Origin: Myxococcota bacterium
GTDB taxonomy: Bacteria > Myxococcota_A > UBA796 > CAJQPC01
DNA length: 44,936 nt
Direction: 5' to 3'
Assembly: GCA_023150845.1 (NCBI GenBank)
Contig: JAKLKD010000022.1
Coordinates: 1 to 44,936 of the forward strand
Shown: piece by piece, positions 14,408 through 43,716 of the stretch
Numbering within the stretch: the first letter of the stretch is position 1
Layout: the number at the start of each line of letters is the position of its first letter
Position numbers and translations under genes: made by a program
The notes under the pieces: model-generated
What the model saw: the letters and a program-made list of their open reading frames with translations, nothing else
Database searches by the model: none
What the model was told of the DNA's origin: nothing

Positions 14408-14619
14408 GCGCACGCGCGATTCCTCGGGGGGGTCGATCATGGCCTTCCCCCCGGTGGGATCGGCTCCTGGTGTACTTTTTTGAGCGGCTAGATCGGGGTG
14501 TTGCACGGCAGGGCTGAAGAACATGGGCTATGATGCGAAGCCGTTCACGTCGAGTTGACAACCACAGCTGTCACACCCGACTTGGCGCTCTCCGGCCACC
14601 TCTCTTCGAGGCGCTCAGC

Positions 14620-22462: not shown

Positions 22463-22466
22463 GCGC

Positions 22467-23433: not shown

Positions 23434-23790
23434 ATGGAATGGGGTCGCGAGCTAGGAGGCGCTTGGGTCGGTCGCTCTGCGGCGGGTCTGCTCGCGGGCG
23501 CGTCTCGTGCGGGCGTGCGGGTCGGTGTGGTGCTCCGGTACTTCACCTTCGCGATGCTGCTCGTCGCCTCGTTGATGTTCTACGTCTGGTCTCGGGTGGA
23601 CGTGCGCGCCAGCGCCGCCGAGCTCGACCGGGTGAACACCGCCCTCGCCACGCGCCAGGCCGAACAGGAGCGCCTCCGCCTTGAGCTGGCCACGCGCCAG
23701 GACCTCGCCCGGCTGGGCCAGGTCGGCGCCGCCATGGGCCTCGTCTCCGACGTTCAAGTCCGCACCGTCACGGTCGGGGAGGGCCTGTGA
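23434..23790 (+). CDS. ftsL: Cell-division protein FtsL-like (single TM plus coiled coil)
   Basis: It has a TM helix (FTFAMLLVASLMFYVW) then a leucine-zipper-like helix (LDRVNTALATRQAEQERLRLELATRQDL). It sits between rsmH and ftsI. An AGGAGG lies 7 nt upstream. There is no strong family signature. Confidence 0.6.
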   Translation: MEWGRELGGAWVGRSAAGLLAGASRAGVRVGVVLRYFTFAMLLVASLMFYVWSRVDVRASAAELDRVNTALATRQAEQERLRLELATRQDLARLGQVGAAMGLVSDVQVRTVTVGEGL

Positions 23791-25880
23791 ACAAGCCCGT
23801 CGCCGACGATCTGAACGCCTGGCTCAGCGCGATGCTCGCGCCGGATCCCGGGCCCGTGGATCGGGCGACGCTCATGGCCCGGGCGCGCTTCCGCGCCTCG
23901 CTCATCATGGTCGGCGTCATCTTGGGCTACGTCGTGCTCGCCCTGCGCGCCGTGCCCCTGATGCTGATGCCCGATGACCGGCTCCAGGCCAAGGCCGCGA
24001 CGCAGTTCCAGGCCGCGGTGGAGGTTGAGGCGCCTCGGGGGGACATCATCGGCCGAGACGGCACGGTGCTCGCCACCTCCGTCGAGATGCCCGCGCTGCG
24101 CGCGGACCCCTCCAAGCTCACCGATGAGCAGGTCGGCCCCTTGGCCCGGGAGCTCGCGGGGCTCCTGCACCTCGACGCCGCGGACCTCGCCGAGAAGCTC
24201 GGCCGCCGGGAGCGCCGCGACATCCTCCTCGCCAACCAGATCTCCCCCGACGCCGTCGAGACCGTCGAGAAGCTCGCCCCGGGCGCCTTGTGGGTGGACT
24301 ACCAGTCCACGCGTTTTTACCCGGGCCGCACCCTGGCCTCGTCGCTCCTGGGCATGGTCGGCCAGAACAACCAGGGCCTTGAGGGCTTGGAGCGCAGCCT
24401 CGACAAGCAGCTCCGGGGCAGCACCTACCGCTTCGTGCAGCAGCGTGACCGCCGCGGGCGCAACATCTCCACGGCCGGGGACGCCCGGGCCCGGGCCCAC
24501 GCCGGGGACTCGGTCACCCTCACCGTCGAGCCCTTCATCCAGCGCGCCGCTGAAGACGCCCTGGACCAGATGATGATCACGTCGGCGCCCGCGGCGGCCA
24601 TCGCCGTCGTCATGGACGTGAAGACCGGCGAGATCCTCGCCATCGCCAACCGCCCCAACGCGAACCCCAACGACGTCTCGACCATCGACGTCTCGGCGAT
24701 GCGTAACCGCGCCGTGGCCGACGCCCACGAGCCCGGCTCGGTGCTCAAGCCCTTCGTCGTCGGCCTCGCCGTCGATAAGGGCATCACCAAGGCCGAGGAC
24801 CTCATCGACTGCGAGGGCGGGAGCTGGCGCGTCGGCAGCAGCATCATCAACGACGACCACCCCCACGGCGTCGTGACGCTCTCCGAGGTGGTGAAGTACA
24901 GCTCCAACATCGGCACCGCGAAGCTCGCCTTCGCGCTCGGCGCTGAAGAGATGATGGAGGGGCTCAAGCGCTTCGGCTTCACCCAGCCGACGGGCCTCAA
25001 CCTCCCCAGCGAGGTCTACGGCTTCTTGCGGAACCCCAAGGGCATCCGCCCTATCGAGCTGGCGACGACGGCGTTCGGCCAGGGCATGACCGCGACCGCG
25101 GTGCAGCTCGCCGCGGCCTTGGCGGCGGTTGGCAACGACGGCGTGCGGATGAAGCCCTACCTCGTCTCCGAGGTGCGGGACCGCCTGGGCTACGTCCGCC
25201 TGCGCAACCGCCCGGTGCGGGTGGAGCGGGTCATCTCCGAGGAGTCCGCCGACAGCCTCGTGAAGATGATGATCACCGTCTTGGAGACCGGCGGCACGGG
25301 CACGAAGGCGCGCCCCGAGGGCTTCTCCGCCGCAGGCAAGACCGGCACGGCCCAGAAGGTCGTGGACGGCCACTACTCGGCCACGGCGCGGGTGTCGTCC
25401 TTCATCGGACTCGCCCCGGCGAACGACCCCCGCCTCGCCATCGTGGTCATGGGCGACACGCCCACCATCGGCAGCAAGTACGGCGGCATCGTCTCCGGCC
25501 CGGGCTTCTCGCTCATCGCCACCCGGGCCCTGCGTTACCTCGGCGTGCCCGAGGACGTGCCCATCGAGCCCAAGCCTAAGGTCGCCCCGCCGCCCCCGGC
25601 GCTCGGCCCCGACGGCTTGCCCCTGCCGGTGATCCCCCCGCCCATGGCGATGCCCGCCCCCGTGAAGGTGGCGCCGGGCCCCGCCCAGCTCACCTGGCTC
25701 GCCGACGGCCGCATGACCGTTCCCGACCTCACCGGCCGCTCGATGCGTGACGTGCTCGTCGCCGTCGATGGCGCCGGGGTTGAGGTCCGCCTCGTCGGCT
25801 CAGGCCGCGTCGTCTCTCAAAACCCCGCGCCGGGCTATGCCTTGGCGGCGGGGGACCGGCTGGAGGTCGTGCTGCAATGA
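23787..25880 (+). CDS. ftsI: Peptidoglycan D,D-transpeptidase FtsI (PBP3) with a Pro-rich linker and a C-terminal PASTA-like domain
   Basis: The transpeptidase motifs SVLKPF (SxxK), YSSN (SxN) and KTGTAQ (KTG) are present, as is the PBP dimerisation domain. The C-terminus reads PKPKVAPPPPALGPDGLPLPVIPPPMAMPAPV then TVPDLTGRSMRDVLVAV…VRLVGSGRVVSQNPAPG (PASTA-like). Confidence 0.9.
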   Translation: MNKPVADDLNAWLSAMLAPDPGPVDRATLMARARFRASLIMVGVILGYVVLALRAVPLMLMPDDRLQAKAATQFQAAVEVEAPRGDIIGRDGTVLATSVEMPALRADPSKLTDEQVGPLARELAGLLHLDAADLAEKLGRRERRDILLANQISPDAVETVEKLAPGALWVDYQSTRFYPGRTLASSLLGMVGQNNQGLEGLERSLDKQLRGSTYRFVQQRDRRGRNISTAGDARARAHAGDSVTLTVEPFIQRAAEDALDQMMITSAPAAAIAVVMDVKTGEILAIANRPNANPNDVSTIDVSAMRNRAVADAHEPGSVLKPFVVGLAVDKGITKAEDLIDCEGGSWRVGSSIINDDHPHGVVTLSEVVKYSSNIGTAKLAFALGAEEMMEGLKRFGFTQPTGLNLPSEVYGFLRNPKGIRPIELATTAFGQGMTATAVQLAAALAAVGNDGVRMKPYLVSEVRDRLGYVRLRNRPVRVERVISEESADSLVKMMITVLETGGTGTKARPEGFSAAGKTGTAQKVVDGHYSATARVSSFIGLAPANDPRLAIVVMGDTPTIGSKYGGIVSGPGFSLIATRALRYLGVPEDVPIEPKPKVAPPPPALGPDGLPLPVIPPPMAMPAPVKVAPGPAQLTWLADGRMTVPDLTGRSMRDVLVAVDGAGVEVRLVGSGRVVSQNPAPGYALAAGDRLEVVLQ

Positions 25881-26613
25881 CGGCACCCCTCCGCCAAACA
25901 AGCTCTCAGAGGTCCGAAGGCGTGCTCTTGCGCTTTGCGGATGATCTGCCGATGGTCGGGTCTACGCTGCCGCGTATGCTCGACAGAGCCCCGAGCGCAA
26001 TCCCCGCGCAGAGGGTGTGCCTTGATGACGCCAGCCCCGCTTTTGGCCCGTCAAGGACGCTGTCGCTGCTCTCGCTGCCCGCCGAAACCCTGCTGAAACC
26101 TGCTGATGCTGTCGCTGACGCTCCGCGAGGATGTCCTCGCGCGCGCGGCCACGTCGGCCCGACCGTCCTTCACGCTCCCGCCCCGCAGACAGGCTCCGCG
26201 CGTCGCAGGTCGGGGGTGCGGGTCCGGCTCACCAGTCTTCGCTGGTGCTCGCCTCGGGGGTCTAGCGCGCTGTTCTGGCGCGCCACCCTCCGCCGTGGGT
26301 TGTGCTGGTCCGTCGCCCCGCCCTGTCGCTCCCCGCTGAGAAAACTGCTGCTGCTGGTCTGGAACCCCGGCCTCTTCGCGCTGGGGCCTCGCGGGGTGGG
26401 AGCGTTTGAAGGGGGCGAGACACGATCGGACCTCCATTGGGCAGGTGTTGGTGGCGCCTCTCTGCACGCTGAGCCGTATCTCCAATCCGCGTGACTCCCT
26501 GGCAGTACGCAGAGGGGCGCCACTCACCGCCGCCCGAACTTCTCCGCCGCTTCTCTTGATCCGCTGACCTCCTCTCCTTCGTCGCGACCCCCCCTCCTCC
26601 CCGCTGAACGCTG

Positions 26614-28062
26614 ATGTTGCTCTCCGAGCTGCTGCGCGGGGTCGACGTGGCTCATGTTCATGGCCGCGTTGATCTTCCCATCGTCGCCGTCACCCAGGAC
26701 TCGCGCCGCGCGGGCCCCGGGGCGCTGTTCGTCGCTCTGGTCGGGCGCCGCGGGGACGGGCACGCCCATGTCCCGGGGCTCGGTGAGGCCGCCGCCGTCG
26801 TCGTCGAGCAAGAGGTCACCGCGCCGCCAGGCGTCACTGTTGTTCGGGTGAAGGACAGCCGGGAGGCCCTGGCCAAGCTCGCCGCGGCGTTTTTTGGTCA
26901 TCCGTCCAATGAACTCTCCGTCATCGGCGTGACCGGCACGAACGGCAAGACGACGACGACCCAGCTCATCGAGGCCATCGCCGCGGCCAACGGCGTGCGC
27001 GCGGCGGTCGTCGGCACCGTCGGCAACCGGATCGCCGGGGAGCTGCTGCCCGCGACCCACACCACGCCGGAGCCGACGGAGTGGCAGGGGCTCCTGCGCC
27101 GCGCTGCCGACGCCCGCTGCGCCTGGGCGGCCGCCGAGGTCAGCTCCATCGGCCTCGACGCTCGGCGTGTAGACGCCACCCGCTTCGCCGTCGGCGTTTA
27201 TACGAACCTCACCCAGGACCACCTCGACTACCACGGCGACATGGCGGCCTACGCCGCGGCGAAGGCCCGGCTGTTCTTGGAGCTCCTGCCGCCGGGGGCC
27301 ACGGCCTTGCTCAACGCCGAGGATCCGGCGGTCATGGCCCTGCCTGCCCTTCCCGAGGGGGTGCGCCGGGTGACCTTCGGGGTGGAGGTCGGCGACGTTC
27401 ACGCCGAGAACCTTCGCCTCACCGTGCACGGCAGCGAGGCGACGGTCGTCACGCCTTGGGGCGACTTTACGCTGCGTCTGCCCCTGCTCGGTCGGCACAA
27501 CGTCGCGAACGCCTTGGGCGCGGCGGCGGCGGCCCTGAGCTTAGGCCTGAGCCCGGAGCAGGTCGCCCGAGGGCTCGCCCAGGCCCCGCCGGTCCCCGGT
27601 CGCCTGGAGCCTGTGGCCAACAACCGCGGCGTCACGGCGCTCGTGGACTACGCCCACACTGAAGATGGCCTGCGCACCGTGCTCAGCGCCCTGCGCGGCC
27701 TCGGCGCCCAGCGCATCGTGCTCGTCTTCGGCTGCGGCGGCGACCGCGACCCCCAGAAGCGCCCGCGTATGGCCCAGGCCGCCACCGAGGGCGCGGATCT
27801 GGTCATCGCCACCAGCGACAACCCCCGCGGTGAAGATCCGCTGGCCATCCTGCACGCCATGGAGCCGGGCCTCCGCCACGACGCACTGTTGATGCCCGAC
27901 CGCGCTGAAGCCATCCGGCGCGCCGCCGCCTTGGCGCGCCCCGGCGACGTGCTGCTCGTGGCGGGCAAAGGCCACGAGACGACGCAGGAGATCGCCGGGG
28001 TCAAGCACCCCTTTGACGACCGCCTGGCCCTGCGGGCGGCCCTGAACGAGGTGGGCTCATGA
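26614..28062 (+). CDS. murE: UDP-N-acetylmuramoyl-L-alanyl-D-glutamate--2,6-diaminopimelate ligase MurE
   Basis: The motifs VIGVTGTNGKTTTTQLI and the DAP-specific DNPR (TSDNPRGEDP) are present, along with the Mur ligase middle and C-terminal domains. Confidence 0.9.
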   Translation: MLLSELLRGVDVAHVHGRVDLPIVAVTQDSRRAGPGALFVALVGRRGDGHAHVPGLGEAAAVVVEQEVTAPPGVTVVRVKDSREALAKLAAAFFGHPSNELSVIGVTGTNGKTTTTQLIEAIAAANGVRAAVVGTVGNRIAGELLPATHTTPEPTEWQGLLRRAADARCAWAAAEVSSIGLDARRVDATRFAVGVYTNLTQDHLDYHGDMAAYAAAKARLFLELLPPGATALLNAEDPAVMALPALPEGVRRVTFGVEVGDVHAENLRLTVHGSEATVVTPWGDFTLRLPLLGRHNVANALGAAAAALSLGLSPEQVARGLAQAPPVPGRLEPVANNRGVTALVDYAHTEDGLRTVLSALRGLGAQRIVLVFGCGGDRDPQKRPRMAQAATEGADLVIATSDNPRGEDPLAILHAMEPGLRHDALLMPDRAEAIRRAAALARPGDVLLVAGKGHETTQEIAGVKHPFDDRLALRAALNEVGS

Positions 28063-29435
28063 TCCTCACCCCCCAAGAGATCTCCCGCGCCACGGGCGGG
28101 ATCCTCGTCCACGACGGCCCCGCCGGGCCGATCCGCACGGACAGCCGGGCGCTCACGCCGGGGGACTGGTTTCTGGCCCTGCGCGGGGACCGCTTCGACG
28201 CCCACGACTTCTTGCCCAAGGCCCGGGAGCTGGGCTGCGCCGGGATCATCGCCGAGCGCGCCCCGGAGGGCTGGGACCGGGGCTTCGTGAAGACGCCGCG
28301 CACGCTCGAGGCCCTGCAGAACTGCGCGCGCTGGGCGCGGTGGAAGCTCGGCTGCCCCGTGGTGGGCGTCACCGGCAGCGCCGGGAAGACGACGACCCGG
28401 GCGCTCATCGCCGAGCTGCTCGCGCCTTTGGGCCGGGTGCACCAGAACGAGGGCAACCTCAACAACCACATCGGCGTGCCGCTCACGCTCTTGGCCTGCC
28501 CGGACGACCCCGACGCCGTCGTCCTGGAGATGGGCATGAGCGACTACGGCGAGATCCGCCTGCTCCGCGACATCGGCGAGCCCAACGTGCGGCTCATCAC
28601 GAGCGTCGGCGCGGCGCACACCGAGACCGTCGGCTCGGTGCAGGGCGTGGCCCGCTGCAAACAGGAGATGTTTGACGGCGCGAGGGCAGGGGAGTGGGTC
28701 ATCGTCAATGTAGACGACGACTACATCCGCGAGATGCCTTTGCCCAAGGGCGCGAGCGTGCTGCGCTTTGGCATGAGCGAGCGCGCCGACGTCCGCCTCT
28801 TACGCGCCGAGCTTGACCCCGAGCGCCTCACGACGGAGCTGGTCCTGCGCCTGCCCGACGGCGAGGTGCTCACGGCGGAGCTGCCCGCGCCGGGCGTGCA
28901 CCTCGCGCGGAACGCCGCTGGGGCCGTCGCCGTGGCCTGGGCCCTGGGCGTGCCGAGCCGGTCCTACGCCGAGAGCATCGCCCGCTACGCCCCCGTCGGC
29001 ATGCGGATGCGCGTGGAGCGCCGCCAAGGCGGCATCACCGTGCTCAACGACGCCTACAACGCGAACCCGCTCTCGATGCGGGCCTCCTTGGACAGCCTCG
29101 CCGCCGTGCGTGGGCGCCGCCGGGTGGCCCTCTTGGGCGACATGCTGGAGCTCGGAGAGGTCGAGGACGGCGCCCACCGTGAGCTGGCGGCCTACGCGGC
29201 GTCCTTGGGCGTCGAGGTGCTCGGCCTCGCCGGGAGACGCTTCTCGGCGGTGGCGGACGCCGCCCAGGGGGCGCGCTCGCTCATCGTCACCCCGGACGCC
29301 GACACCTTGGCCGAGCGGGTTCGCGCGGCGCTGCGCCCTGACGACGTGGTGCTCATCAAGGGCTCCCGCGGCTCGAAGATGGAGCGTTCTCTTCTGTGGC
29401 TCCCCTTGGAGGCTCCGCCGGAGCCGGAGGGCTGA
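28059..29435 (+). CDS. murF: UDP-N-acetylmuramoyl-tripeptide--D-alanyl-D-alanine ligase MurF
   Basis: GVTGSAGKTTTRAL is present and the Mur ligase domains follow. The start overlaps the murE stop (ATGA). Confidence 0.9.
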   Translation: MILTPQEISRATGGILVHDGPAGPIRTDSRALTPGDWFLALRGDRFDAHDFLPKARELGCAGIIAERAPEGWDRGFVKTPRTLEALQNCARWARWKLGCPVVGVTGSAGKTTTRALIAELLAPLGRVHQNEGNLNNHIGVPLTLLACPDDPDAVVLEMGMSDYGEIRLLRDIGEPNVRLITSVGAAHTETVGSVQGVARCKQEMFDGARAGEWVIVNVDDDYIREMPLPKGASVLRFGMSERADVRLLRAELDPERLTTELVLRLPDGEVLTAELPAPGVHLARNAAGAVAVAWALGVPSRSYAESIARYAPVGMRMRVERRQGGITVLNDAYNANPLSMRASLDSLAAVRGRRRVALLGDMLELGEVEDGAHRELAAYAASLGVEVLGLAGRRFSAVADAAQGARSLIVTPDADTLAERVRAALRPDDVVLIKGSRGSKMERSLLWLPLEAPPEPEG

Positions 29436-30544
29436 TGTTTTACCACCTCTTCGTCCCGTTGGCGGACGACCACATCTTCTTCAACGTCTTCCGGTACACC
29501 ACGTTCCGGACGGCGTGGGCGCTCATGACCGCGCTCGGCTTCTGCTACCTGGTCTTCCCGAGCTTCATCAACTGGATGAACAACCGGAAGATGGAGCAGA
29601 TCATCCGCCGGGACGGGCCCCAGGAGCACCTGGAGAACAAGCTCGGCACGCCGACGATGGGCGGGGTGCCGATGCTCGCGGGCATCACGCTCTCGGCGCT
29701 CTTGTGGTGTCGCCTCGACCAGTGGTCGGTGTGGGTCTGCCTCATCGTGCTGCTCGGCTATGGGCTCATCGGCTTCATCGACGACTGGAAGAAGGTCATG
29801 GAGAAGTCGGCGGACGGCCTCGCCGGTCGCTGGAAGATCGTGGGGCAGCTCGTCTTCGGGGTGTTGCCCTTCGCCTGGGCCTACGGCACCGGGCGCATGA
29901 ACGCCGTGTTCCAGCTCCCCTTCTTTAAGGCGGGCGTGGACTTCGGGAACCTCTGGGAGGGCGCCCCGCCGAGCCTCGGCTGGATCTACCTCGCCTTGGT
30001 GCTGTTCATCCTCGTCGGCGCGTCGAACGCCGTGAACCTCACCGACGGCCTCGACGGCCTCGCCATCGGGCCGGTGATGACCTCGGCGGGCACCTACGGC
30101 ATCCTGGCCTATGTGGCCGGGAACACGAACTTCTCGGCGTACCTGGCCGTGGAGTACGTCGCCGGGGCCTCGGAGCTCACGGTCTTGTGTATGGCCGTCG
30201 TCGGCGCGGGCCTGGGCTTCCTCTGGTACAACGCCTACCCCGCGCAGATCTTTATGGGCGACGTGGGCTCCTTGGCCTTGGGCGGGCTGCTCGCGGCCTT
30301 GGCCATCGTCACCAAACATGAGGTGCTGTTGGCCTTGGTGGGCGGCATCTTTGTGTTGGAGACCGTCTCGGTCATCGTGCAGGTCGTGAGCTTCAAGACC
30401 ACGGGCAAACGTGTGTTCGCGATGGCGCCGATTCACCACCACTACGAGAAGCGGGGCTGGTCGGAGCCGAAGATCATCGTGCGGTTCTGGATCATCTCGA
30501 TCTTGCTCGCGCTCGTGGCCCTCACCACGCTGAAGCTGAGGTGA
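29435..30544 (+). CDS. mraY: Phospho-N-acetylmuramoyl-pentapeptide transferase MraY
   Basis: FNVFRYTTFR, GTPTMGG, NAVNLTDGLDGLA, and HHHYE are MraY blocks. The ATG at 29435 overlaps the murF stop and has a GGAGG upstream. Confidence 0.9.
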   Translation: MFYHLFVPLADDHIFFNVFRYTTFRTAWALMTALGFCYLVFPSFINWMNNRKMEQIIRRDGPQEHLENKLGTPTMGGVPMLAGITLSALLWCRLDQWSVWVCLIVLLGYGLIGFIDDWKKVMEKSADGLAGRWKIVGQLVFGVLPFAWAYGTGRMNAVFQLPFFKAGVDFGNLWEGAPPSLGWIYLALVLFILVGASNAVNLTDGLDGLAIGPVMTSAGTYGILAYVAGNTNFSAYLAVEYVAGASELTVLCMAVVGAGLGFLWYNAYPAQIFMGDVGSLALGGLLAALAIVTKHEVLLALVGGIFVLETVSVIVQVVSFKTTGKRVFAMAPIHHHYEKRGWSEPKIIVRFWIISILLALVALTTLKLR

Positions 30545-31860
30545 GCATGGCCGCCGCCAACGCCGTGATGCCACGACGGGTCACCGTGCTCGGGGCTGGG
30601 CTCTCGGGCCGGGCCGCGGCGAGACTCGCGCTGCGCCTGGGCGCCGAGCGCGTGACGCTCACCGACCTCAAGGCGGACTCCGAGGGCGTCGAGGGCGCCC
30701 GGGCGGTCTTCGGCCGCCACGACGACGCCGACCTCACCGAGGTGGACCTCCTCGTCGTGTCGCCGGGGGTTCCCGCCGCCGCGCCGCCGGTTCGCCGGGC
30801 CCAGGCCGCGGGGGTGGACGTCATCGGGGAGCTGGGCTTCGCCTGGCGCTTCTTGCCGCGCCTGCCGACGGCGGCCATCACCGGCACGAACGGCAAATCG
30901 ACGGTGACCCACTTCACGGGGCAGCTCCTGCGCGGCGCCGGGCGGCGGCCCTTCGTCGGCGGCAACCTCGGCACGCCCCTCTGTGAGGCCGTCGGCGGTG
31001 ACTTCGACAGCCTCGTCGTCGAGGTCTCCTCCTACCAGCTTGAGCTGGCTGGAGACTTCGCGCCGGACGTCGGGGTCATCCTCAACCTCACCCCCGACCA
31101 CCTCGCCCGGCACGGCACCATGGAGGGCTACGCCGCGGCGAAGGCGAAGCTCTTTGACCACATGACCCCGGACGGGCTCGCCTATGTCCCCAATGGAGAC
31201 ATTCTCCTGCGCGCGGCCTGTGAGGGCAAGGCGGGCCAGCGGCGCTGGCTCGACGGGGAGCCTGGGGTGAACCTCAGCGACGATGGCGCCTTCGCCCTCA
31301 TCGAGGGGGAGCGCCTGGATCTCTCCGACCTGCGCGTGATGGGGCGCATCAACCGCTGGAACGCCGCTGTCGCCGCCGCCTTGGCCCGGGGCCTGGGCGC
31401 GCCCCTCGGCGCCCTCGACCTCTCGGCGCTCACGGCCCTGCCGCACCGGATGCAGCCCGTCGCCGAGCGGGACGGCGTGCTCTGGATCAACGACTCCAAG
31501 GCCACGAACGTCGACGCCGCCCTGGTGGGCTTGGCGAGCGTCGATCGCCCGGCGGTGGTCATCCTCGGCGGCCAAGGCAAAGAGGGCGCGGACTACGGCC
31601 TGCTCGTCCCGGCGCTCCAGCGCGCGGCGGCGGAGGTCATCGTCTGCGGCGGCAGCGCCCCGGAGATCTCTCGGGGCCTCGGGGCTCAGCCGCACCACGT
31701 CGTCCCCGGCCTCGCCGACGCCGTGGTCTTGGCCCGTCGCCTCGCCCGGCCCGGCCAGGCCGTGCTGCTCACCCCGGCCTGCGCCTCGTTTGATGAGTTC
31801 AACAACTTCGAGCACCGCGGGGCCGTCTTCGCGCGGCTCGCCCAGGAGGCCACGACATGA
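30541..31860 (+). CDS. murD: UDP-N-acetylmuramoylalanine--D-glutamate ligase MurD
   Basis: It has an N-terminal Rossmann region (VTVLGAGLSGRAAARL) and AITGTNGKSTVT. The start is GTG 30541 or ATG 30547. Confidence 0.9.
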   Translation: MSMAAANAVMPRRVTVLGAGLSGRAAARLALRLGAERVTLTDLKADSEGVEGARAVFGRHDDADLTEVDLLVVSPGVPAAAPPVRRAQAAGVDVIGELGFAWRFLPRLPTAAITGTNGKSTVTHFTGQLLRGAGRRPFVGGNLGTPLCEAVGGDFDSLVVEVSSYQLELAGDFAPDVGVILNLTPDHLARHGTMEGYAAAKAKLFDHMTPDGLAYVPNGDILLRAACEGKAGQRRWLDGEPGVNLSDDGAFALIEGERLDLSDLRVMGRINRWNAAVAAALARGLGAPLGALDLSALTALPHRMQPVAERDGVLWINDSKATNVDAALVGLASVDRPAVVILGGQGKEGADYGLLVPALQRAAAEVIVCGGSAPEISRGLGAQPHHVVPGLADAVVLARRLARPGQAVLLTPACASFDEFNNFEHRGAVFARLAQEATT

Positions 31861-33011
31861 AGGCCCGCCGTTTTGACCTGCCCCTCTTGGGGCTCGTGGT
31901 CGTGCTGCTCATCCTCGGCCTCGTCATGGTGCAGTCCGCGTCGGGGCCCGTGGCCGCGGACCGCCTGGACGACCCCTGGTACTACGTCAAGCGCCAGCTC
32001 GCGGCCATCATCGTGGGCATCGGCGGGGGCGTGACCATCGCGTTCACGCCGTATGAGTGGCTGCGGCGTTACGCCTGGGCCGCCTACGCCGCGGTCATCG
32101 TCGGGCTCATCTTGGTGTTTGTGCCGGGGCTCGGCCACCGGGTCAACGGCGCGTCACGCTGGATCGGCATGGGCAGCGTGAACCTCCAGCCCTCTGAGCT
32201 CGCGAAGCTCGTCTGCGTCTTGTGTATGGCGCACTTCATCGACGAGAAGGGCGGGCGCCTGGACGACGTGAAGAAGGTGCTGCTCCCGGCCTTGGCCATC
32301 CCTGCGCCCCTCATGCTGCTCATCGTGATGGAGCCGGACTTCGGCACGACGGTCATCGTCGGCGGCATGGCGTTCATCACCTTGGTCGTCGCCGGGCTGC
32401 GCACACGCTTCATCTACGCCCTGTTCGGCGCTGGCGTCACCTTAGGCGCCTTGGTGATGGTCGCCGAGCCCTACCGCCTCAAGCGCCTACGATCCTTTAT
32501 GGATCCTTGGGCCGACGCCGCGGGGGCTGGCTACCAGGTCATCCAGTCGATGATCGCCTTCCACTCCGGCGGGCTCAGCGGGCGCGGCCTCGGCGAGAGC
32601 CAGGCGAAGCACCTCTTCTTGCCGGAGCCCTGGACGGACTTCATCGCCGCCGTGCTCGGTGAGGAGCTCGGCCTCGTCGGTGTGCTCGCGCTGCTCGTGC
32701 TCTACAGCCTGCTCATCTGGCGCGGGATGCACATCGCGCGGCAGGCCGATGACCTCTTCGGCGCCTTGTTGGCGACCTCCTTGACCGCCGCAATCGGGCT
32801 GCAGGCCTTCTTCAACCTCGGCGTCGTCATGGGCGTCGTGCCGCCGAAGGGCCTCGTGCTGCCCTTCATGTCCTATGGCGCCTCGGCCATCGTCGCCCAG
32901 CTCTTCGCCGTCGGCCTGCTCCTGAACGTCTCGGCGAACAGCGCCGCCGGGGCGCGCGCGCCCACCATCTACCGCCCGAGCGCGACGGCGGAGGGGGTCC
33001 TGGCCCGATGA
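31857..33011 (+). CDS. ftsW: Peptidoglycan glycosyltransferase FtsW (SEDS family)
   Basis: It is polytopic, with SEDS motifs (SMIAFHSGGLSGRGLGES, LPEPWTDFI). Its position between murD and murC supports FtsW over RodA. Confidence 0.85.
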   Translation: MKARRFDLPLLGLVVVLLILGLVMVQSASGPVAADRLDDPWYYVKRQLAAIIVGIGGGVTIAFTPYEWLRRYAWAAYAAVIVGLILVFVPGLGHRVNGASRWIGMGSVNLQPSELAKLVCVLCMAHFIDEKGGRLDDVKKVLLPALAIPAPLMLLIVMEPDFGTTVIVGGMAFITLVVAGLRTRFIYALFGAGVTLGALVMVAEPYRLKRLRSFMDPWADAAGAGYQVIQSMIAFHSGGLSGRGLGESQAKHLFLPEPWTDFIAAVLGEELGLVGVLALLVLYSLLIWRGMHIARQADDLFGALLATSLTAAIGLQAFFNLGVVMGVVPPKGLVLPFMSYGASAIVAQLFAVGLLLNVSANSAAGARAPTIYRPSATAEGVLAR

Positions 33012-34396
33012 TGTTCCGTGGAAAGGTGCGCCAGGTTCATTTTGTCGGCATCGGCGGCTCGGGCATGAACGGGCTCGCCGAGGTGCTGCTCACCTTGGGC
33101 TTCGTCGTGTCCGGCTCGGACATGAAAGAGAGCGCCACCGTCGCCCGGCTGCGCAGCCTCGGCGCCCAGGTGTTCATCGGGCATCGGGCGGAGAACATCG
33201 TCGGCGCCGACGTCATCGTGCGCTCGACGGCGGTGCCCGACCACAACCCCGAGCTGAGCGCGGGCCGCGCCCAGGCCGTGCCCGTCATCCCCCGGGCGGA
33301 GCTCCTCGCCGAGCTCATGCGCATGAAGTACGGCGTCGCCGTCGCGGGCACCCACGGCAAGACGACGACGACCTCAATGGTCGCCCAGATCCTCGGCGCG
33401 GCGGGCCTCGACCCCACCGTGGTCATCGGCGGCAAGCTCGACGCCTTGGGCTCCAACGCCCGGCTCGGCCAGGGGGAGCTCCTCGTCGCTGAGGCCGATG
33501 AGTCCGACGGCAGCTTCTTGTTGTTGGCGCCGACGGTGGCGATCATCACGAACATCGACCCCGAGCACCTCGACCACTACGGGGACTTCGCCAGCTTACG
33601 GCAGGCCTTCATCCAGTTCGCCAACAAGGTGCCCTTCTTCGGGTTCACCGTGGCCTGCCTCGACCACCCCGTCGTCCAGGAGAGCCTCCCCGAGCTGCGC
33701 CGCCGCGTCGTGACCTACGGCCTCACCCGCCAGGCCGACCTGCGCGGCGACGACATCCGCTGCGAGGGCCTCGAGACGAGCTTCGCCGTGCACCGCGGCG
33801 GGGAGACCCTGGGCCGCCTGCGCCTGATGATGCCTGGGCGGCACAACGTGCAGAACGCCTTGGCGGCGACGGCGACGGCTCTGGGCCTCGACATCCCCTT
33901 TGAGCAGATCGCCGCGGGGCTGGACGGCTTCACCGGGGTGCAGCGCCGCTTCACCGTCGTCGGCGACGCCGGCGGCGTCATGGTCGTGGACGACTACGGC
34001 CACCACCCTGAAGAGATCCGCGCCACGCTCGCAGCCGCCCGGGCGGGCTTCGCCCAGCGCCGCATCATCGCGGTCTTCCAGCCCCACCGCTACACCCGGG
34101 TGCGCGACCTGCACGCCGACTTCTGCCGGGCGTTCAACCGCGCGGACCTCGTGCTCGTCTGCCCCATCGCCGCGGCGGGGGAGGCGCCGATCGAGGGCAT
34201 CGACCACCAGAGCCTCGCCGAGGGCCTGCGCCGCTACGGGCACCGCGGCGTCGAGCGTGTGGATGACCTCGACGAGGCCTTGGCCCGGCTCTCAGACATC
34301 GTTCAGCCCAACGACCTCGTGATCACCCTCGGCGCGGGCAACGTGAACTCCCTCTGCGCGCCGCTGGTTCGGCGCCTCGGCGGGGAGCCTCGTTGA
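33008..34396 (+). CDS. murC: UDP-N-acetylmuramate--L-alanine ligase MurC
   Basis: HFVGIGGSGMNGLAEVLL and AVAGTHGKTTTTSM are present. The gene directly follows ftsW with no murG in between. Confidence 0.9.
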   Translation: MMFRGKVRQVHFVGIGGSGMNGLAEVLLTLGFVVSGSDMKESATVARLRSLGAQVFIGHRAENIVGADVIVRSTAVPDHNPELSAGRAQAVPVIPRAELLAELMRMKYGVAVAGTHGKTTTTSMVAQILGAAGLDPTVVIGGKLDALGSNARLGQGELLVAEADESDGSFLLLAPTVAIITNIDPEHLDHYGDFASLRQAFIQFANKVPFFGFTVACLDHPVVQESLPELRRRVVTYGLTRQADLRGDDIRCEGLETSFAVHRGGETLGRLRLMMPGRHNVQNALAATATALGLDIPFEQIAAGLDGFTGVQRRFTVVGDAGGVMVVDDYGHHPEEIRATLAAARAGFAQRRIIAVFQPHRYTRVRDLHADFCRAFNRADLVLVCPIAAAGEAPIEGIDHQSLAEGLRRYGHRGVERVDDLDEALARLSDIVQPNDLVITLGAGNVNSLCAPLVRRLGGEPR

Positions 34397-35250
34397 GCGC
34401 ACCCAGCCTCCCCATCGCCGCCGTGGCCGAGCGCCTGCGCAGCGTGCCTGGCCTCATGGCGCGTGAGGACGAGCCCATGAGCCGCCACACCGCCTGGCGC
34501 GTGGGTGGGCCCGCGGCCCTGTGGGTGGTGGTCGAGACGGAGGAGGCGCTCCTGGAGGCCGTCGGGATCATCCGTGAGGCCAACGAGCGGGTCGTGCCCG
34601 TCGATGGCCAGCACCTCTGGGTGGGCGACGGCGGCGTCGATGGGGTGTGGCTGCGGCTCGGCGCCTGCGCGGAGGGGGTGCAGCGCGACGGCCTTCGCCT
34701 CGACGTGGGCGCCCAGACCCCCGTGGCGGCTCTGGCCAGCTACGCCCGCCGAGAGGGCCTCATCGGCCTGGAGGGCACCATCAACACCTCGGGCACCGTG
34801 GCGGAGCTGCTCCGCCGGGAGGAGCCCCCGCCGACCTTGGTGGGCGTGCGGGTGCTGCGCGGCGGGCGCCTCGCAGAGGTCACCCCCGACAAGCTCAAGG
34901 AGGACCACGTCATCGTGCGGGCCCGTTTCGTGCTTGACCCCGCCCAGGCCCTCAAGGGCGGTCGGAACCCCAAGCGTGGGCCGGGCCTCCCGGGCCGCCT
35001 GTTCTTGGACCCCAAGAAGAACCACAGCGCCGCGGAGATGATGAGTGAGCTTGGCCTGCGGGGCGTGCGCCTGCGCGGGGCGCGGCTCGGCGGCTTCGAG
35101 CCGAACACCCTCATCAACCTCGGCGGCGCCAAAGAGAACGACCTCAAGGTGCTCATCGGCATGGTCAAGGACCGCGCCAAGAGCCACCTCGGCGTAGACC
35201 TGAACCCTGAGCTCAAGCCCCTGGGGCGTAGCCGGAGGAGTGATGGCTGA
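34393..35250 (+). CDS. murB: UDP-N-acetylenolpyruvoylglucosamine reductase MurB (divergent)
   Basis: The N-terminal FAD-binding region is DEPMSRHTAWRVGGPA, and the C-terminus is LGLRGVRLRGARLGGFEPNTLINLGGAKENDLKVLIGMVKDRAKSHLGVDLNPELK. The GS(V/F)FKNP catalytic-Ser motif appears as GRLFLDP; this is a by-eye alignment and is uncertain. The start is TTG 34393. Confidence 0.7.
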   Translation: MSAPSLPIAAVAERLRSVPGLMAREDEPMSRHTAWRVGGPAALWVVVETEEALLEAVGIIREANERVVPVDGQHLWVGDGGVDGVWLRLGACAEGVQRDGLRLDVGAQTPVAALASYARREGLIGLEGTINTSGTVAELLRREEPPPTLVGVRVLRGGRLAEVTPDKLKEDHVIVRARFVLDPAQALKGGRNPKRGPGLPGRLFLDPKKNHSAAEMMSELGLRGVRLRGARLGGFEPNTLINLGGAKENDLKVLIGMVKDRAKSHLGVDLNPELKPLGRSRRSDG

Positions 35251-36199
35251 GACAGCGATGGCTGAGACGGTGATTGCCCGCGGCGCGCGGGTGGCGGTGC
35301 TCATGGGCGGCATGTCCAGCGAGCGTGAGATCTCCCTCAAGTCGGGCAAGGCCGTGCTGGGCGCGCTCCAGAGCCGCGGCTGGGACGCCCACGCCGTAGA
35401 CGTCGGCCCGGACCTCCCCGAGCGCCTGCGCGAGCTCGGCGCCCAGGTGGCCTGGATCGCGCTTCACGGCCAGTTCGGCGAGGACGGCTGCGTGCAGGGC
35501 CTCCTGGAGATCATGCGGATCCCCTACACCGGCTCCGGGGTGCGCGGCTCGGCGGTGGCGATGGACAAGATCGCCACCAAACGTGCCTTGGTCGGCTCCG
35601 GCGTCGTCATGCCGGCCGACACCGTCTGGCGCCGCGGCGAGGCGATGCCCGAGGACCTGCCCCTGCCGCTCGTGGCCAAGTTCCCCGAGGGCGGCTCGAC
35701 CTTAGGCGTCGTGATGGTCCATGAGGAGCATGAGCTTGAGAAGGCGCTCCTCGACCTCGCCCAGCTCGGCGAAGAGGTGCTCCTGGAGCAGTTTGTCCGG
35801 GGCGACGAGATCACCGTCGCGGTGCTCAACGGCCGGGCCCTGCCCGTGGTCGCCATCGTGCCCGAGTCCGGCTTCTTCGACTTCGCCGCCAAGTACACCA
35901 AGGGCCTCACCCGCTACATCGTGCCCGCGCCCATCGACCCCACCATCGCCGAGCGCGCCCAGCGCGCCGCTGAAGAGGCCTACACCCGCCTCGGCCTCGG
36001 CGGCGTCGCCCGCGCCGACTTCATCGTCGACGCCTCGGGCCAGCCCTACTTCTTGGAGATCAACACCATCCCCGGCATGACCGCGACCAGCCTGAGCCCA
36101 ATGGCGGCCGGGGCCATCGGGATGTCCTTTGAGGAGCTCGTCGAGAAGATCCTCCTCGGCGCGCGCCTCCACCTGGAGCGCCGCGACGGGCGCGCCTGA
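35240..36199 (+). CDS. ddl: D-alanine--D-alanine ligase Ddl
   Basis: RVAVLMGGMSSEREISL, LHGQFGEDGCVQGLLE, and an ATP-grasp region (EFVRGDEITVAVLNG, YFLEINTIPGMT) are present. Alternative ATGs are at 35240, 35243 and 35258 because of a tandem MAET duplication. Confidence 0.9.
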   Translation: MMAETAMAETVIARGARVAVLMGGMSSEREISLKSGKAVLGALQSRGWDAHAVDVGPDLPERLRELGAQVAWIALHGQFGEDGCVQGLLEIMRIPYTGSGVRGSAVAMDKIATKRALVGSGVVMPADTVWRRGEAMPEDLPLPLVAKFPEGGSTLGVVMVHEEHELEKALLDLAQLGEEVLLEQFVRGDEITVAVLNGRALPVVAIVPESGFFDFAAKYTKGLTRYIVPAPIDPTIAERAQRAAEEAYTRLGLGGVARADFIVDASGQPYFLEINTIPGMTATSLSPMAAGAIGMSFEELVEKILLGARLHLERRDGRA

Positions 36200-36261
36200 G
36201 CCCCAAGGATCCTTGTGTGGGGGTCGAATCGGCCCAACACAGGAAAAATCAAACTATTTAC

Positions 36262-36291
36262 TTGTCAAGACTTCTAAGCCTCTGGTAAAAG
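36262..36291 (+). promoter_or_regulatory. Putative internal σ70 promoter upstream of ftsQ-ftsZ (TTGTCA-N18-TAAAAG)
   Basis: TTGTCA is at 36262–67 and TAAAAG at 36286–91, in a locally AT-richer 168-bp ddl–ftsQ spacer. Confidence 0.3.
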
Positions 36292-36366
36292 AAGCTCAGT
36301 CCCCGTAGAAGCCGCCGCTGCACCGCGAACGCTGACCTCCCCCGCTGCCCCTGCCTGTTGAGAGCC

Positions 36367-37143
36367 ATGCTGACCCGTCTCCGTGACCGCCTCGCCGACC
36401 TGCTGGAGCGCCCCATCGTGGGCCGCGTCCTGCGGCTGCTCGGCGTGGCCGTGGTGACGGCCGGCGTGAGCGGCCTCGGCGTCTACGGCGTCTGCAACTA
36501 CCACCGCTTCGCCCGAGTCGCGACGGTTGAGGTCGTGGGCAACCACCACGCCAGCGTCGTCGCCGTGCGCCACCTCGCGGACGTGCACGAAGGCGACGCG
36601 CTCCTGCTCATTGACCTCGACGCCGTCATCCGCCAGGTGATGCGCCATCCTTGGGTGGCCGAGGTGGACGTCGAGCGGGTGTACCCCGGCGGCCTGCGCG
36701 TGCATGTGCGTGAGCACGAGGACGTGCTGCTGCTCTCCCACGGGGGCGCGCTTTACCGCGTCAACCCCTCGGGAGAGGTGTTCTTGCGCGCTCGGGGCGA
36801 CGGCCTCGACCGCCCGGTGCTCACCGGGCTGGACGATCGCCTCGTAGAGCAATATGGGCCGGTGGCTCGGCGCATCGTGCTCGACGCGCTGCACATCCTC
36901 GACCTCGTCGGGGAGAGCGGCGTGATTCAACCCGACGAGATCTCTGAGCTTCACTTTGACGAGGCCCTCGGCTTCACCCTGCTCCTCCGCAACGGCGGCT
37001 TGCTCCGGTTCGGTTTCCGCGACCCGGCGCAGCAGCTCAAGCGGCTCGGGGTCATGGCTCGCAACGGGCTTGACCTCTCCGTTCCTCACCACATCGACCT
37101 CGACCTCGACGGCCTCGCTGTGGCGACCCCGCTCTCGTCCTGA
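36367..37143 (+). CDS. ftsQ: Cell-division protein FtsQ/DivIB (TM plus POTRA domain)
   Basis: It has a TM segment (VLRLLGVAVVTAGVSGLGVYGV) and a POTRA-like region (VATVEVVGNHHASVVAVRHLADV…GDALLLIDLDAVIRQVMRHPWVAEVDVERVYPGGLRVHVRE). The ATG at 36367 is preferred over the TTG at 36358. Confidence 0.75.
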   Translation: MLTRLRDRLADLLERPIVGRVLRLLGVAVVTAGVSGLGVYGVCNYHRFARVATVEVVGNHHASVVAVRHLADVHEGDALLLIDLDAVIRQVMRHPWVAEVDVERVYPGGLRVHVREHEDVLLLSHGGALYRVNPSGEVFLRARGDGLDRPVLTGLDDRLVEQYGPVARRIVLDALHILDLVGESGVIQPDEISELHFDEALGFTLLLRNGGLLRFGFRDPAQQLKRLGVMARNGLDLSVPHHIDLDLDGLAVATPLSS

Positions 37144-37308
37144 GCCAACCCCGGCTCATCCTCGGACGAGACGACCTCTGCAAGCACCTCGCTCCTCCTC
37201 CTGCTGCTCTCCTCCTCGTCTCCTTCGTCCCCCGCGAACGACAACACCCTCCAAGCCTCGCCTGTCCTCCTGCCGCGCCTATGCGCAGGGGCACTCCGGG
37301 AGAACTCC

Positions 37309-38424
37309 ATGCCCATCGAAATCATTGAGAACGAACTGGTCGGCGCCAAGATCAAGGTGATCGGCGTCGGCGGCGGCGGCAACAACGCCGTCAACACCAT
37401 GATCGCGGGTGGTCTCACCGGGGTCGAGTTCATCGCGGTGAACACCGACGCCCAGGATCTGCGTCGCTCCCTCGCGCCGCGCCGCTTCCAGCTCGGCGGG
37501 CAGCTCACCAAGGGCCTCGGCGCGGGCGCCAACCCCGAGGTCGGCCGTGAGGCGGCCCTTGAGGACAAGGAGCGCCTCGCGGAGCTCGTCGTCGGCGCCG
37601 ACATGGTCTTCGTGACCGCCGGCATGGGCGGCGGCACCGGCACGGGCGCGGCCCCGGTCTTGGCCCAGCTCGCTCGTGAGCACGGCGCCCTCACCGTCGG
37701 CGTCGTCACCCGCCCCTTCTGGTTCGAGGGCAAGAAGCGCCGCCGTCAGGCCGAGGAGGGCATCGAGGCCCTCAAGGGCGTCGTGGACACCCTCATCACC
37801 ATCCCCAACCAGCGCCTCATCGCGATGGCCAGCGACCGCACCACCATGAAGGAGGCGTTCAACCTCGCCGACCAGGTGCTGCTCCAGGCCATCAAGGGCG
37901 TGTCCGACCTCATCAACTTCGAGGGCATCGTCAACGTCGACTTCGCCGACGTGCGCACGACGATGGCCAACAAGGGCGTGGCGCTCATGGGCGTCGGCAC
38001 CGCCACCGGCGACCACAAGACGGTCGACGCCGCCCAGCGCGCGATCTCGTCCCCGCTGCTCGACGACGTGTCCATCTCCGGCGCCACCAGCGTCCTGATG
38101 AACATCACCGGCAACTCGAACCTCACGATGTACGAGATCAACGAGGCCTCCTCGCTCATCCAGGAAGAGGCCCACGAGGACGTCAACCTCATCTGGGGTT
38201 GGGTCATCGACGACACCATGGGCGACGAGGCCCGCGTCACCGTCATCGCCACGGGCTTCGAGGAGGCCCGCCAGCAGGTGGTGCCCTCCGCCGAGCGCCG
38301 CGTCGCCGTGCAGGTGGCCGGTCGCCGCGGGATGCACGGTGGCCACGGCCGCGAGATGGCCAGCGGCTTCGACATCGCGCACGACGACTACGACATCCCG
38401 ACGTTCTACAAGAACGCCGACTGA
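37309..38424 (+). CDS. ftsZ: Cell-division GTPase FtsZ
   Basis: [15 protein letters not shown] and the tubulin signature [11 protein letters not shown] are present, with NVDFADV and a conserved C-terminal peptide DYDIPTFYK. The gene directly follows ftsQ with no ftsA. Confidence 0.95.
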
Positions 38425-38450: not shown

Positions 38451-38498
38451 GCGGCCCGGTCCCTCTGAGGCAGAGGAGGCCGGGCCGCCTCGTTTTTT
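38451..38498 (+). terminator. Intrinsic terminator after ftsZ: GCGGCCCGG…CCGGGCCGC extended hairpin followed by CTCGTTTTTTGG
   Basis: A 9-bp outer stem encloses an inner CCTCTG/CAGAGG stem and is followed by a T6 tract. It lies between ftsZ and the convergent TPR lipoprotein gene. Confidence 0.75.
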
Positions 38499-38506
38499 GG
38501 GCCCCA

Positions 38507-39502
38507 TCAGCTCGCGGGCAAGCCGTCGCGGCGGGCGCGGGCGGTGTTGGTGAGCTCCCCCTCAAAGCCGAAGGTCCCGGCGACGATGATGGCTTGGTCG
38601 TAGGCGTTGAAGGCCTTGGCCACGAGCACCTTTGTCGACTTGTCGACGCCCTCGCGGTAGAGCGACGCCTGCTCCTCGGTGAGCCGGCCGGGGGGCGGCG
38701 CGCGCAGCATGTCCTCGCGGAAGCTGATGTAGGCGTCGCCGAGGTCGAGGAGGCCCCGGAGGATCCACTCCGGCTCCCGCTGCTCGACGACGTGCACGAG
38801 CATGGCCTCGGCGTCTAAGATGTGCCCGGCGCGGGCCTGCATGTCGCGCTTCTGCTTCCGCTCAGGCCCGTCGAAGGTGAGCGCCGCGGCCTGGTCGAGC
38901 TCGTAGCGGGCGAGGTGGTACCAGCCTTTGCCGAGGATCCAGCCCAGCTCCTCGTCGGTGCGGGTGGCGGAGAGCGCGGCGTTGAGCAGCTCGCGCCCCT
39001 TCGCCGCTCGGCCCGAGCGCAGCATCGCGACGCCCCGGGCCACGTCGTAGGTCACCCGGTCGTTGAGGCTCAGGCCGCCGGTCGTCGGCACCCGGGAGAA
39101 GGCCTTGAGGGCCTCCTCAAAGCGGCCGAGCTCCTCCAGGCAGAGGCCCCGGCGGAAGTGTACGCTCGGGGCCAAGGACTCCGGCGGCGATTGGGTGAGG
39201 AGCAGATCATACGCCGAGATGGCGGTCCCAAGCTCGCCGCGCAGCTCATAGACGACGCCGAGGTGGTAGAGCGCCTCGGGCGGGCCGTCGGGGAGGCTCG
39301 CGAGGTAGACGAGGCGCTGCTCGGCGCCCTCGAGGTCGTCGTTGATGAGGCGGGTGTAGGCGTCCTCAAACAGGGCTTCGGGGCTCTGGGTGGCGAAGAC
39401 CCCGACCAAGGCCGCCGGGGGCTGGTGCTGGTCCAAGGGATAGAGCACGACCGGCGCGCGAGCGGCGCAGGCGAGGAGCGTGAGTAGGCTGAGCGTCATC
39501 AT
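38507..39502 (-). CDS. TPR-repeat lipoprotein
   Basis: The lipoprotein signal is MMTLSLLTLLACAARAP (lipobox LLAC). TPR-like helical repeats follow (AEQRLVYLASL…ALYHLGVVYELRGELGTAISAYDLLL…FRRGLCLEELGRFEEALKAF). The start is placed at the MM codons (39502) rather than the listed 39604. Confidence 0.7.
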   Translation of the reverse strand: MMTLSLLTLLACAARAPVVLYPLDQHQPPAALVGVFATQSPEALFEDAYTRLINDDLEGAEQRLVYLASLPDGPPEALYHLGVVYELRGELGTAISAYDLLLTQSPPESLAPSVHFRRGLCLEELGRFEEALKAFSRVPTTGGLSLNDRVTYDVARGVAMLRSGRAAKGRELLNAALSATRTDEELGWILGKGWYHLARYELDQAAALTFDGPERKQKRDMQARAGHILDAEAMLVHVVEQREPEWILRGLLDLGDAYISFREDMLRAPPPGRLTEEQASLYREGVDKSTKVLVAKAFNAYDQAIIVAGTFGFEGELTNTARARRDGLPAS

Positions 39503-39851
39503 GGGACAGGAGACCCTGGCGGTGGCGCGGAGGTTCCCACCTCGGCGCCTGAGCAAAAAAGTGGCCTCCACCCTGGCCGTGTGAGCGTTGGGGTCCTCCT
39601 CCACTCAGGAGGGGGGAGCCGCGTGTCCGCTTCAGGCTTCCTCGCGAGGAGGCGTGCACACCACGGAGAGGGGCGGGTCCCAGGACATACTTGTGGAGGA
39701 ACCACGGTCGCTCTGTACTCGAACCGGGCAGAGGCCGATCTCACTATACCTGAGCGGGGCGAGGCTTGCGCGGAGGGTGGCGCGAAGGCTAAAGCGTCAC
39801 GCGGCTCATCGACGCGGCTGGCGTCAGGCGGAGCCCGGAGACGGTGTCCTG

Positions 39852-43475: not shown

Positions 43476-43716
43476 GCTCGCGAGTCCGACGAAGGCCGTC
43501 GCGGCGCCGCGCAGATCGCCCAGAGCGACGACCCCCGCCGCGCAGAGCGCGCAGAGGACGCCGCCGATCAGCGCGAGGGGCGCAGCGCCGGGTCGCTGAG
43601 AGGGGTTCAGGTGAAGCCTCGGGACAGACTTGACATGACAAGAGAGACCGCGTACCCATTATCGGGTTAAAAGTGTGTGTGTGCCTCGCAGCGATGACGC
43701 TGCACTCGGAGTCGTC

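Follow-up and report, generated by a model that had tools for sequence, protein, structure and literature searches.

The cluster of division and cell-wall genes (dcw) has a gene order that ranks among the most conserved in bacteria, and its stablest parts include the ftsA-ftsZ pair and the ftsW-murG-murC block. Here we describe a dcw cluster that lacks both, on a 44,936-bp stretch of DNA ("the window") which is a whole contig, of about 70% G+C, from a metagenome-assembled genome (MAG) labelled "Myxococcota bacterium" at NCBI. The closest described system is the canonical diderm cluster of Myxococcaceae and Geobacter (loci L065, L035 and L028 of our survey), which shares its genes, their order and their single strand with the window, together with packed or overlapping junctions, ftsZ in last place and an FtsI with a PASTA domain. 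The window differs from it in having neither murG nor ftsA, nor remnants of them, in a degenerate murB and in an expanded ftsI-murE spacer.

Two further systems resemble the present one in part. Clusters of the actinobacterial type (...ftsW-murG-murC-ftsQ-ftsZ), in which FtsZ is anchored by SepF, also have ftsQ directly upstream of ftsZ without an intervening ftsA, but they retain murG, whereas the present clade is of the diderm type, with ddl and a putative murB relic inside the cluster and no sepF found near ftsZ. Cyanobacteria, like Actinobacteria, have ftsQ-ftsZ without ftsA and use SepF. An actinobacterial-like order, ftsW-murG-murC-murB-ftsQ-ftsZ without ftsA or ddl, was also seen in a distant lineage of our survey (L104, FWPV01000190.1, 6315–13066; MurC 43% identical). 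In the Polyangiaceae, which belong to the sister lineage (L005–L008, L042), essential wall genes have left the cluster, as in the present clade; there, however, murB and ddl lie outside while murG and ftsA are in place, the opposite of what is found here.

We think it probable that the window holds a complete dcw operon that was remodelled in the stem of an uncultured clade, with the missing functions mostly supplied in trans. A widespread uncultured lineage without either stable block, which has kept a decayed MurB, amounts to a natural experiment on the cohesion of the dcw cluster. It raises the questions of whether a diderm affiliated with the Myxococcota has an FtsA-independent divisome, and of what role an eroded MurB plays in the operon. 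Should the absent genes merely be located elsewhere, the finding would be a lineage marker only.

Gene content and distribution of the cluster

Matches to Pfam and NCBIfam models give the order mraZ-rsmH-ftsL-ftsI-murE-murF-mraY-murD-ftsW-murC-murB-like-ddl-ftsQ-ftsZ on the forward strand, with 4-nt overlaps at most gene junctions. Where two bit scores are given below, the second is the curated NCBIfam cut-off.

22010–22462, forward: mraZ, the first gene of the cluster (Pfam MraZ, 1.9e-22; TIGR00242, 79 bits, under the cut-off of 98 bits)
22095–23375, forward: open reading frame (ORF) of rsmH (mraW) (Pfam Methyltransf_5, 1.8e-95, residues 128–425)
23434–23790, forward: FtsL-like small membrane coiled-coil protein in the ftsL position, with one transmembrane segment and a coiled coil
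23787–25880, forward: ftsI, class B penicillin-binding protein (Pfam Transpeptidase, 4.8e-73; PBP_dimer; C-terminal PASTA)
25881–26613, no strand: expanded ftsI-murE spacer, 733 bp, non-coding
26614–28062, forward: murE (NF001126, 484 vs 373 bits)
28059–29435, forward: murF (TIGR01143, 369 vs 289 bits)
29396–30544, forward: mraY (TIGR00445, 415 vs 192 bits)
30541–31860, forward: murD (TIGR01087, 333 vs 212 bits)
31857–33011, forward: ftsW (TIGR02614, 378 vs 337.5 bits)
33008–34396, forward: murC (TIGR01082, 534 vs 335 bits)
34393–35250, forward: degenerate murB homologue with a MurB fold (best NCBIfam MurB score 99.9 vs 259 bits)
35240–36199, forward: ddl (NF002378, 362.5 vs 243 bits)
36200–36366, no strand: ddl-ftsQ spacer, locally AT-richer, 88–89% identical in genus-level relatives
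36358–37143, forward: ftsQ (Pfam POTRA_1, 2.3e-15; FtsQ_DivIB_C, 2.9e-6)
37144–37308, forward: ftsZ leader, non-coding and pyrimidine-rich, 165 bp, the slot of ftsA in other lineages
37309–38424, forward: ftsZ, 371 aa (TIGR00065, 419 vs 295 bits)
38476–38501, forward: terminator-like hairpin with a T-run 3' of ftsZ, suggestive (one site vs 0.9 expected by chance)

Of the canonical features, the 5' module mraZ-rsmH-ftsL-ftsI and the order murE-murF-mraY-murD-ftsW are retained; those missing are murG between ftsW and murC, and the ftsQ-ftsA-ftsZ arrangement of the 3' end. MurE, MurF, MraY, MurD, FtsW, MurC, Ddl and FtsZ pass their curated cut-offs, which the MurB homologue fails, and the genes other than murB remain canonical and are presumably functional. 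The ftsL assignment is supported by position and architecture, the match of this ORF to DivIC being weak (E 0.13), and its product is 46% identical to the counterpart in L001. As the methylase domain begins only at residue 128, the true start of rsmH is probably near 22476, and the probable start of ftsQ is the ATG at 36367 (ftsQ of relatives encodes 258 aa). A consensus scan of the ddl-ftsQ spacer gave no sigma-70 match. The PASTA domain of FtsI was considered as a peculiarity of the clade and ruled out, since it is common in the outgroups.

In the window the stop codon of ftsW (TGA, 33009–33011) overlaps the start codon of murC (ATG, 33008–33010), forming ATGA at 33008–33011 on the forward strand, and this is the slot which holds murG in all 89 loci outside the clade that have ftsW and murC. 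The NCBI protein numbers point the same way: ftsW is MCK6521023.1 and ftsZ MCK6521028.1, and this five-step gap is filled exactly by murC, the murB-like gene, ddl and ftsQ, so that the NCBI annotation calls no extra gene there. At the other slot, the ftsZ leader has no in-frame start codon upstream of 37309; it is 91–96% identical in genus-level relatives and C/T-rich across the clade. A structured RNA in this leader was considered and rejected (fold z-score -0.43, no Rfam match).

Neither gene was found elsewhere in the window. A Pfam search of every ORF with a coding signal in GC3 (G+C at third codon positions) detected no GT28, FtsA, SepF or ZipA domain, while it matched RecA, SmpB, PrmA, a Ser/Thr kinase, a GT2 enzyme, a LarA homologue and others. 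Translated searches of the window (tblastn, E ≤ 10) with four MurG and four FtsA queries from related loci returned noise only; a weak FtsA match at 41983–42333 (reverse) is spurious, as it lies within a LarA-family racemase homologue and is not colinear. Hidden Markov models (HMMs), made from 71 sequences of MurG and 62 of FtsA, were applied without filters to every six-frame ORF of 40 aa or more in the window and in 14 related loci, and no remnant of either was detected, in the ftsZ leader or elsewhere (best E 0.17, on Ddl); on a control locus the same models scored 1e-156 and 1e-207. When a MurG profile was searched against a collection of 5.8 billion proteins, the best 120 of about 8000 matches came from Geobacter and Myxococcus.

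A preliminary description of this DNA had reported murG and ftsA to be missing from their slots, and the junction, the leader and the searches above agree with that. It had rightly described the ftsQ-ftsZ spacer as CT-rich, with a length of 166 bp that is corrected here to 165 bp. It had also placed the beginning of the cluster at 26614, which is the start of murE, whereas the cluster starts at 22010 with mraZ; and it had called the order otherwise canonical, a statement that does not hold for the degenerate murB slot or for the ftsI-murE spacer with its 733 bp.

For comparison, a MurC scan of one genome per GTDB species gave 80 loci, and later look-ups together with a metagenome scan extended the set, in which 111 loci have ftsW and murC. 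Synteny mapping of the 80 loci found ftsW directly adjacent to murC, and ftsQ to ftsZ, only in the four most similar ones (L001, L002, L003 and L011; MurC 61–70% identical). Look-ups of exact FtsZ matches yielded genus-level relatives in wastewater MAGs, on a 637-kb contig at the European Nucleotide Archive (ENA) and in metagenomes of the Joint Genome Institute (JGI); their FtsZ is identical, their other proteins are 80–96% identical, the gene order is the same, and neither murG nor ftsA occurs within 10 kb downstream. Searching with the divergent MurB added three genomes (GCA_020632795.1, GCA_041445565.1 and GCA_002998485.1), and the metagenome scan added nine marine contigs.

In the extended set murG lies between ftsW and murC in 89 of 111 loci, that is in every one of the 89 outside the clade. 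The other 22 are exactly the loci whose MurC is at least 60.6% identical to that of the window, the highest value among murG-bearing loci being 59.6%. The picture for ftsA is similar: none of the 20 clade loci with ftsZ has it, while among the 91 non-clade loci with ftsZ it lies within 1.5 kb upstream in 89 and 2.3 kb upstream in L047, so that only L104 is without it. A neighbour-joining tree of MurC united the window, L081–L086, L001, L002, L003 and L011 in one clade with 100/100 bootstrap support; its sister group comprises Polyangiaceae, Myxococcaceae and Kofleriaceae loci, all of which have murG and ftsA. These 11 clade loci were included in the tree, and the 11 later ones were assigned to the clade by MurC identity.

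The clade's 22 loci represent at least nine species-level lineages from wastewater, mine and marine samples, and the same arrangement recurs in independent assemblies (GCA_016719515.1, GCA_016706815.1, GCA_023150775.1 and the three genomes found through MurB, besides ENA, JGI and Logan contigs). The arrangement without murG and ftsA is thus fixed in a deep, uncultured clade affiliated with the Myxococcota and absent from its sampled relatives. It is as uncommon as the preliminary description had supposed; as to whether it is unusual or lineage-typical, it is the norm in its own clade (22 of 22 loci), and it is the lineage itself that forms the exception within the Myxococcota. One member has gone further: in L002 murF is followed directly by murD, and the 120-bp gap between them (5335–5454) contains only a 20-codon ORF, so that mraY lies outside the cluster there. 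A literature search on the clade assemblies, and on FtsA, SepF or the dcw cluster in Myxococcota, returned nothing relevant.

The MurB-like protein, FtsZ and the ftsI-murE spacer

The protein encoded in the murB position (34393–35250, forward) fails all curated MurB cut-offs of NCBIfam (NF010480, 99.9 vs 259 bits; TIGR00179, 60.4 vs 144.5 bits). Alignment with the structures 4pyt and 3tx1 from the Protein Data Bank (PDB) and with seven outgroup MurB sequences locates the changes. The motif GxG(S/T)N has become DGQH, GGAxxMNAGA is lost, a deletion has removed the stretch that bears the catalytic Arg, another residue (Arg in the window) stands in place of the catalytic Ser of AGSxFKNP and HANF has become EPNT, while the catalytic Glu survives only in the genus of the window. 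The protein nevertheless has much in common with type II MurB (PDB 4pyt, 3tx1 and 1hsk), from which it differs in the lost FAD motifs and catalytic Arg and Ser: the N-terminal EP-x-x-x-H...R-x-GG and C-terminal N-x-G-x-A...D segments are shared, and an AlphaFold2 (AF2) model (pLDDT 78) retains the three-domain MurB fold, the top 18 Foldseek matches being MurB structures (E 1e-20, TM 0.65–0.69).

Among the genes of the cluster murB-like evolves fastest, with 29–42% identity within the clade vs 61–70% for MurC. The protein was seen in the window, L001, L002, L003, L011, L082, L087 and L089, and the family is confined to the clade without murG and ftsA; its 15 clusters are followed by a sharp drop in score to canonical MurB. 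Members are labelled "FAD-binding protein" or "hypothetical protein" by the NCBI annotation pipeline (PGAP). From the lost motifs we infer that the protein is a catalytically dead relic of MurB.

The FtsZ proteins of the clade are the shortest of the survey (366–374 aa vs 375–431 aa for complete outgroup proteins) and have a short linker. The C-terminal peptide, which the preliminary description had recognised in the window, is kept in all clade members as DYDIPTF(Y/F)(K/R)N where outgroups have PTFLR(K/R); the termini as a whole read DYDIPTF(Y/F)(K/R)N(A/V)D in the clade vs DIPTFLR(K/R) in the outgroups. Its retention in all members suggests that some partner still binds the peptide. The FtsZ of Thermotoga maritima, which binds FtsA, has Tyr at the Leu position. 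A separate observation concerns the Geobacter-type FtsZ (L028, L026, L027, L036 and others), where a second motif resembling the C-terminal peptide (e.g. EVNREIPTFIRE) occurs about 30 residues before the terminal DIPTFLRK.

The spacer between ftsI and murE measures 135–733 bp in the clade vs 17–104 bp in the outgroups. In the window its GC3 is 0.65–0.72 in all frames, compared with 0.89 in murE, and hence there is no coding signal; conservation with L001–L003 is limited to the ftsI end. An ORF at 25877–26494 ("orfX") was rejected as a gene because it has no Pfam match, no coding GC3 signal and no conservation. The spacer does contain a conserved stem-loop, whose positions are:

26449–26523 of the window, forward (strand assumed): stem-loop about 90 nt upstream of murE
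about 2120–2210 of L087: corresponding stem-loop
about 1620–1720 of L089: corresponding stem-loop
about 2975–3070 of L001: corresponding stem-loop

In these four loci the invariant motif TCCAAT(Y)CCGCGTGACTC is enclosed by a stem of about 13 bp that has both sides altered at four of its pairs. Wherever the element occurs there is one copy, that of the window, which is one C shorter, being seen by alignment only, and it has no Rfam match. The marine clade members L094, L114 and L133 have a long stem of different sequence in a similar place.

Relocation or loss of the missing genes

The simplest reading of these differences is a single episode of remodelling in the clade stem. In such an episode the excision of murG would have brought ftsW and murC together at a healed junction, the translationally coupled ATGA overlap; that of ftsA would have left a short pyrimidine-rich leader between ftsQ and ftsZ; the murB of the cluster would have decayed to a protein with a MurB fold but without FAD motifs, catalytic Arg or catalytic Ser; and the ftsI-murE spacer would have expanded. 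Genes at other places in the genome would then supply MurG and an active MurB in trans, and if FtsA was lost, FtsZ would be tethered to the membrane by another protein that binds its retained C-terminal peptide.

We regard it as very likely that other parts of the genome carry murG and an active murB, given that both are essential for the otherwise intact MraY/FtsW/FtsI pathway. The intact MurC to MurF, Ddl, MraY, FtsW and FtsI need UDP-MurNAc and lipid II, so that MurB and MurG activities must exist. Moreover, essential dcw genes do leave the cluster in this part of the phylogeny (mraY in L002; murB and ddl in Polyangiaceae), which also argues for a location elsewhere. Against remodelling with supply in trans it must be said that the window and flanks of about 10 kb in the relatives revealed neither murG nor an active murB nor ftsA for any clade genome, that a location elsewhere is deduced from the essentiality of MurG and MurB, and that the inactivity of the MurB-like protein is judged from its lost motifs.

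For FtsA the choice between relocation and true loss is about even. All three functions may simply have been relocated, with an ordinary divisome in which FtsA tethers FtsZ, a possibility to which we give slightly less than an even chance. Cluster composition is fluid among these lineages, as seen from the absent mraY of L002, the absent murB and ddl of Polyangiaceae and the ftsA of L047 at 2.3 kb from ftsZ; this fluidity, and the rarity of FtsA loss in proteobacteria-like lineages, favour relocation, as do the retained C-terminal peptide and its parallel in the FtsA-binding FtsZ of Thermotoga maritima. However, the adjacency of ftsA and ftsZ is nearly invariant where FtsA exists (all but two of the 91 non-clade loci within 1.5 kb, and one of those two at 2.3 kb), which favours loss instead, and in none of the clade loci was an ftsA found within 22 kb upstream of the cluster or 6.5–10 kb downstream of it. 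True loss, with FtsZ held at the membrane by another peptide-binding protein, SepF-like or new, seems to us no less plausible than relocation of everything, and likewise just short of an even bet. It agrees with the consistent absence of ftsA from the 20 loci, with the short FtsZ and its clade-specific peptide, and with the established precedent of Actinobacteria and Cyanobacteria. The expected tether is, however, not apparent: a SepF- or ZipA-like protein, as the preliminary description had proposed, is encoded neither in the window nor within 6.5–10 kb downstream of ftsZ in related loci, and no SepF domain was detected in the window ORFs scanned or in called genes up to 10 kb downstream of ftsZ in relatives. 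The conserved downstream neighbours, a TPR protein with a lipobox-like N-terminus in one part of the clade and a protein with SGNH- and TPR-like parts in another, both look extracytoplasmic.

It is far less probable that MurG and MurB activities are absent genome-wide, with the wall precursor made by non-orthologous enzymes or the wall itself non-canonical. Two steps of one pathway are affected at the same node, and the window, L087 and L089 do have genes for a GT2 glycosyltransferase and a GT-C-like protein downstream of ftsZ. Yet MurC, MurD, MurE, MurF, MraY, Ddl, FtsW and FtsI are canonical and conserved in the clade and would need UDP-MurNAc and lipid II; the GT2 gene has no tblastn match in the short loci L001–L003 and L011; the marine loci have other genes after ftsZ (the GT2 gene was never queried against them); and a 357-aa protein beside the GT2 gene is not MurG-like (hhalign probability 0.9%). 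We know of no peptidoglycan-making bacterium without MurG. Equally improbable is the wider proposal that MurG, MurB activity and FtsA are all gone from the clade, lipid II or a variant of it being made by non-orthologous enzymes and FtsZ held by a new anchor; if true, this would mean that both the wall-precursor pathway and the divisome have been rewired in a diderm lineage. Finally, it is extremely unlikely that the arrangement is an artefact of assembly, binning or annotation, or a cluster on its way to pseudogenisation. The data do consist of MAG contigs only, and two of the long-read MAGs (L081, L083) have murD broken into two ORFs, but the same order recurs in over 20 independent contigs, which differ in study, assembler and habitat, the overlapping junctions are clean, curated cut-offs are passed by eight enzymes, and lineages with MurC identities as low as 61% still have this order. 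Remodelling in the clade stem, with most functions supplied in trans, is the reading we favour.

Neighbouring genes

In the high-GC members of the clade a block of genes 3' of ftsZ is conserved:

38507–44448 of the window: block of five genes
14025–20855 of L087: corresponding block
14770–20212 of L089: corresponding block

It encodes a TPR protein (reverse), a GT2 cellulose-synthase-like protein (forward), a LarA-family racemase homologue (reverse), a GT-C/MptA-B-like membrane protein (reverse) and an OmpA/TIG protein (forward). Genes downstream of ftsZ were considered as replacements for the missing ones. The TPR protein was rejected because its lipobox-like N-terminus makes it probably an exported lipoprotein, and the GT2, LarA-like and GT-C genes because they have no match in L001–L003 or L011 and because different genes follow ftsZ in the marine loci; the 357-aa protein, present in L087 and L089, was rejected as a MurG replacement on the hhalign result.

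In a marine subclade ftsZ is followed directly, on the same strand, by a gene for a 527-aa protein (L114, 14022–15605, forward; L112, L133, L095, L152 and L101 likewise), in which an N-terminal hydrophobic segment, motifs like those of SGNH/GDSL hydrolases and a C-terminal TPR-like part can be recognised by eye.

A 6S RNA lies between the TPR and GT2 genes of the window (39561–39737, reverse; RF00013, 57.7 bits vs a gathering score of 46.4 bits). As the mechanically assigned ORF starts of these two genes (39604 and 39588) run into the RNA, their true starts must be further in.

Two large proteins encoded in the window are a 1257-aa Ser/Thr kinase with an AAA_16 segment (793–4566, forward) and a protein of 861 aa (14530–17115, forward) in which choice-of-anchor D, DUF1573 and MopE metal-binding repeats occur. 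A protein of 1070 aa (4590–7802, reverse) matches Pfam MVP_shoulder (3.8e-19), Vault repeat (7e-7) and Vault_3 (2e-6), and by these domain matches is a predicted bacterial homologue of the eukaryotic major vault protein.

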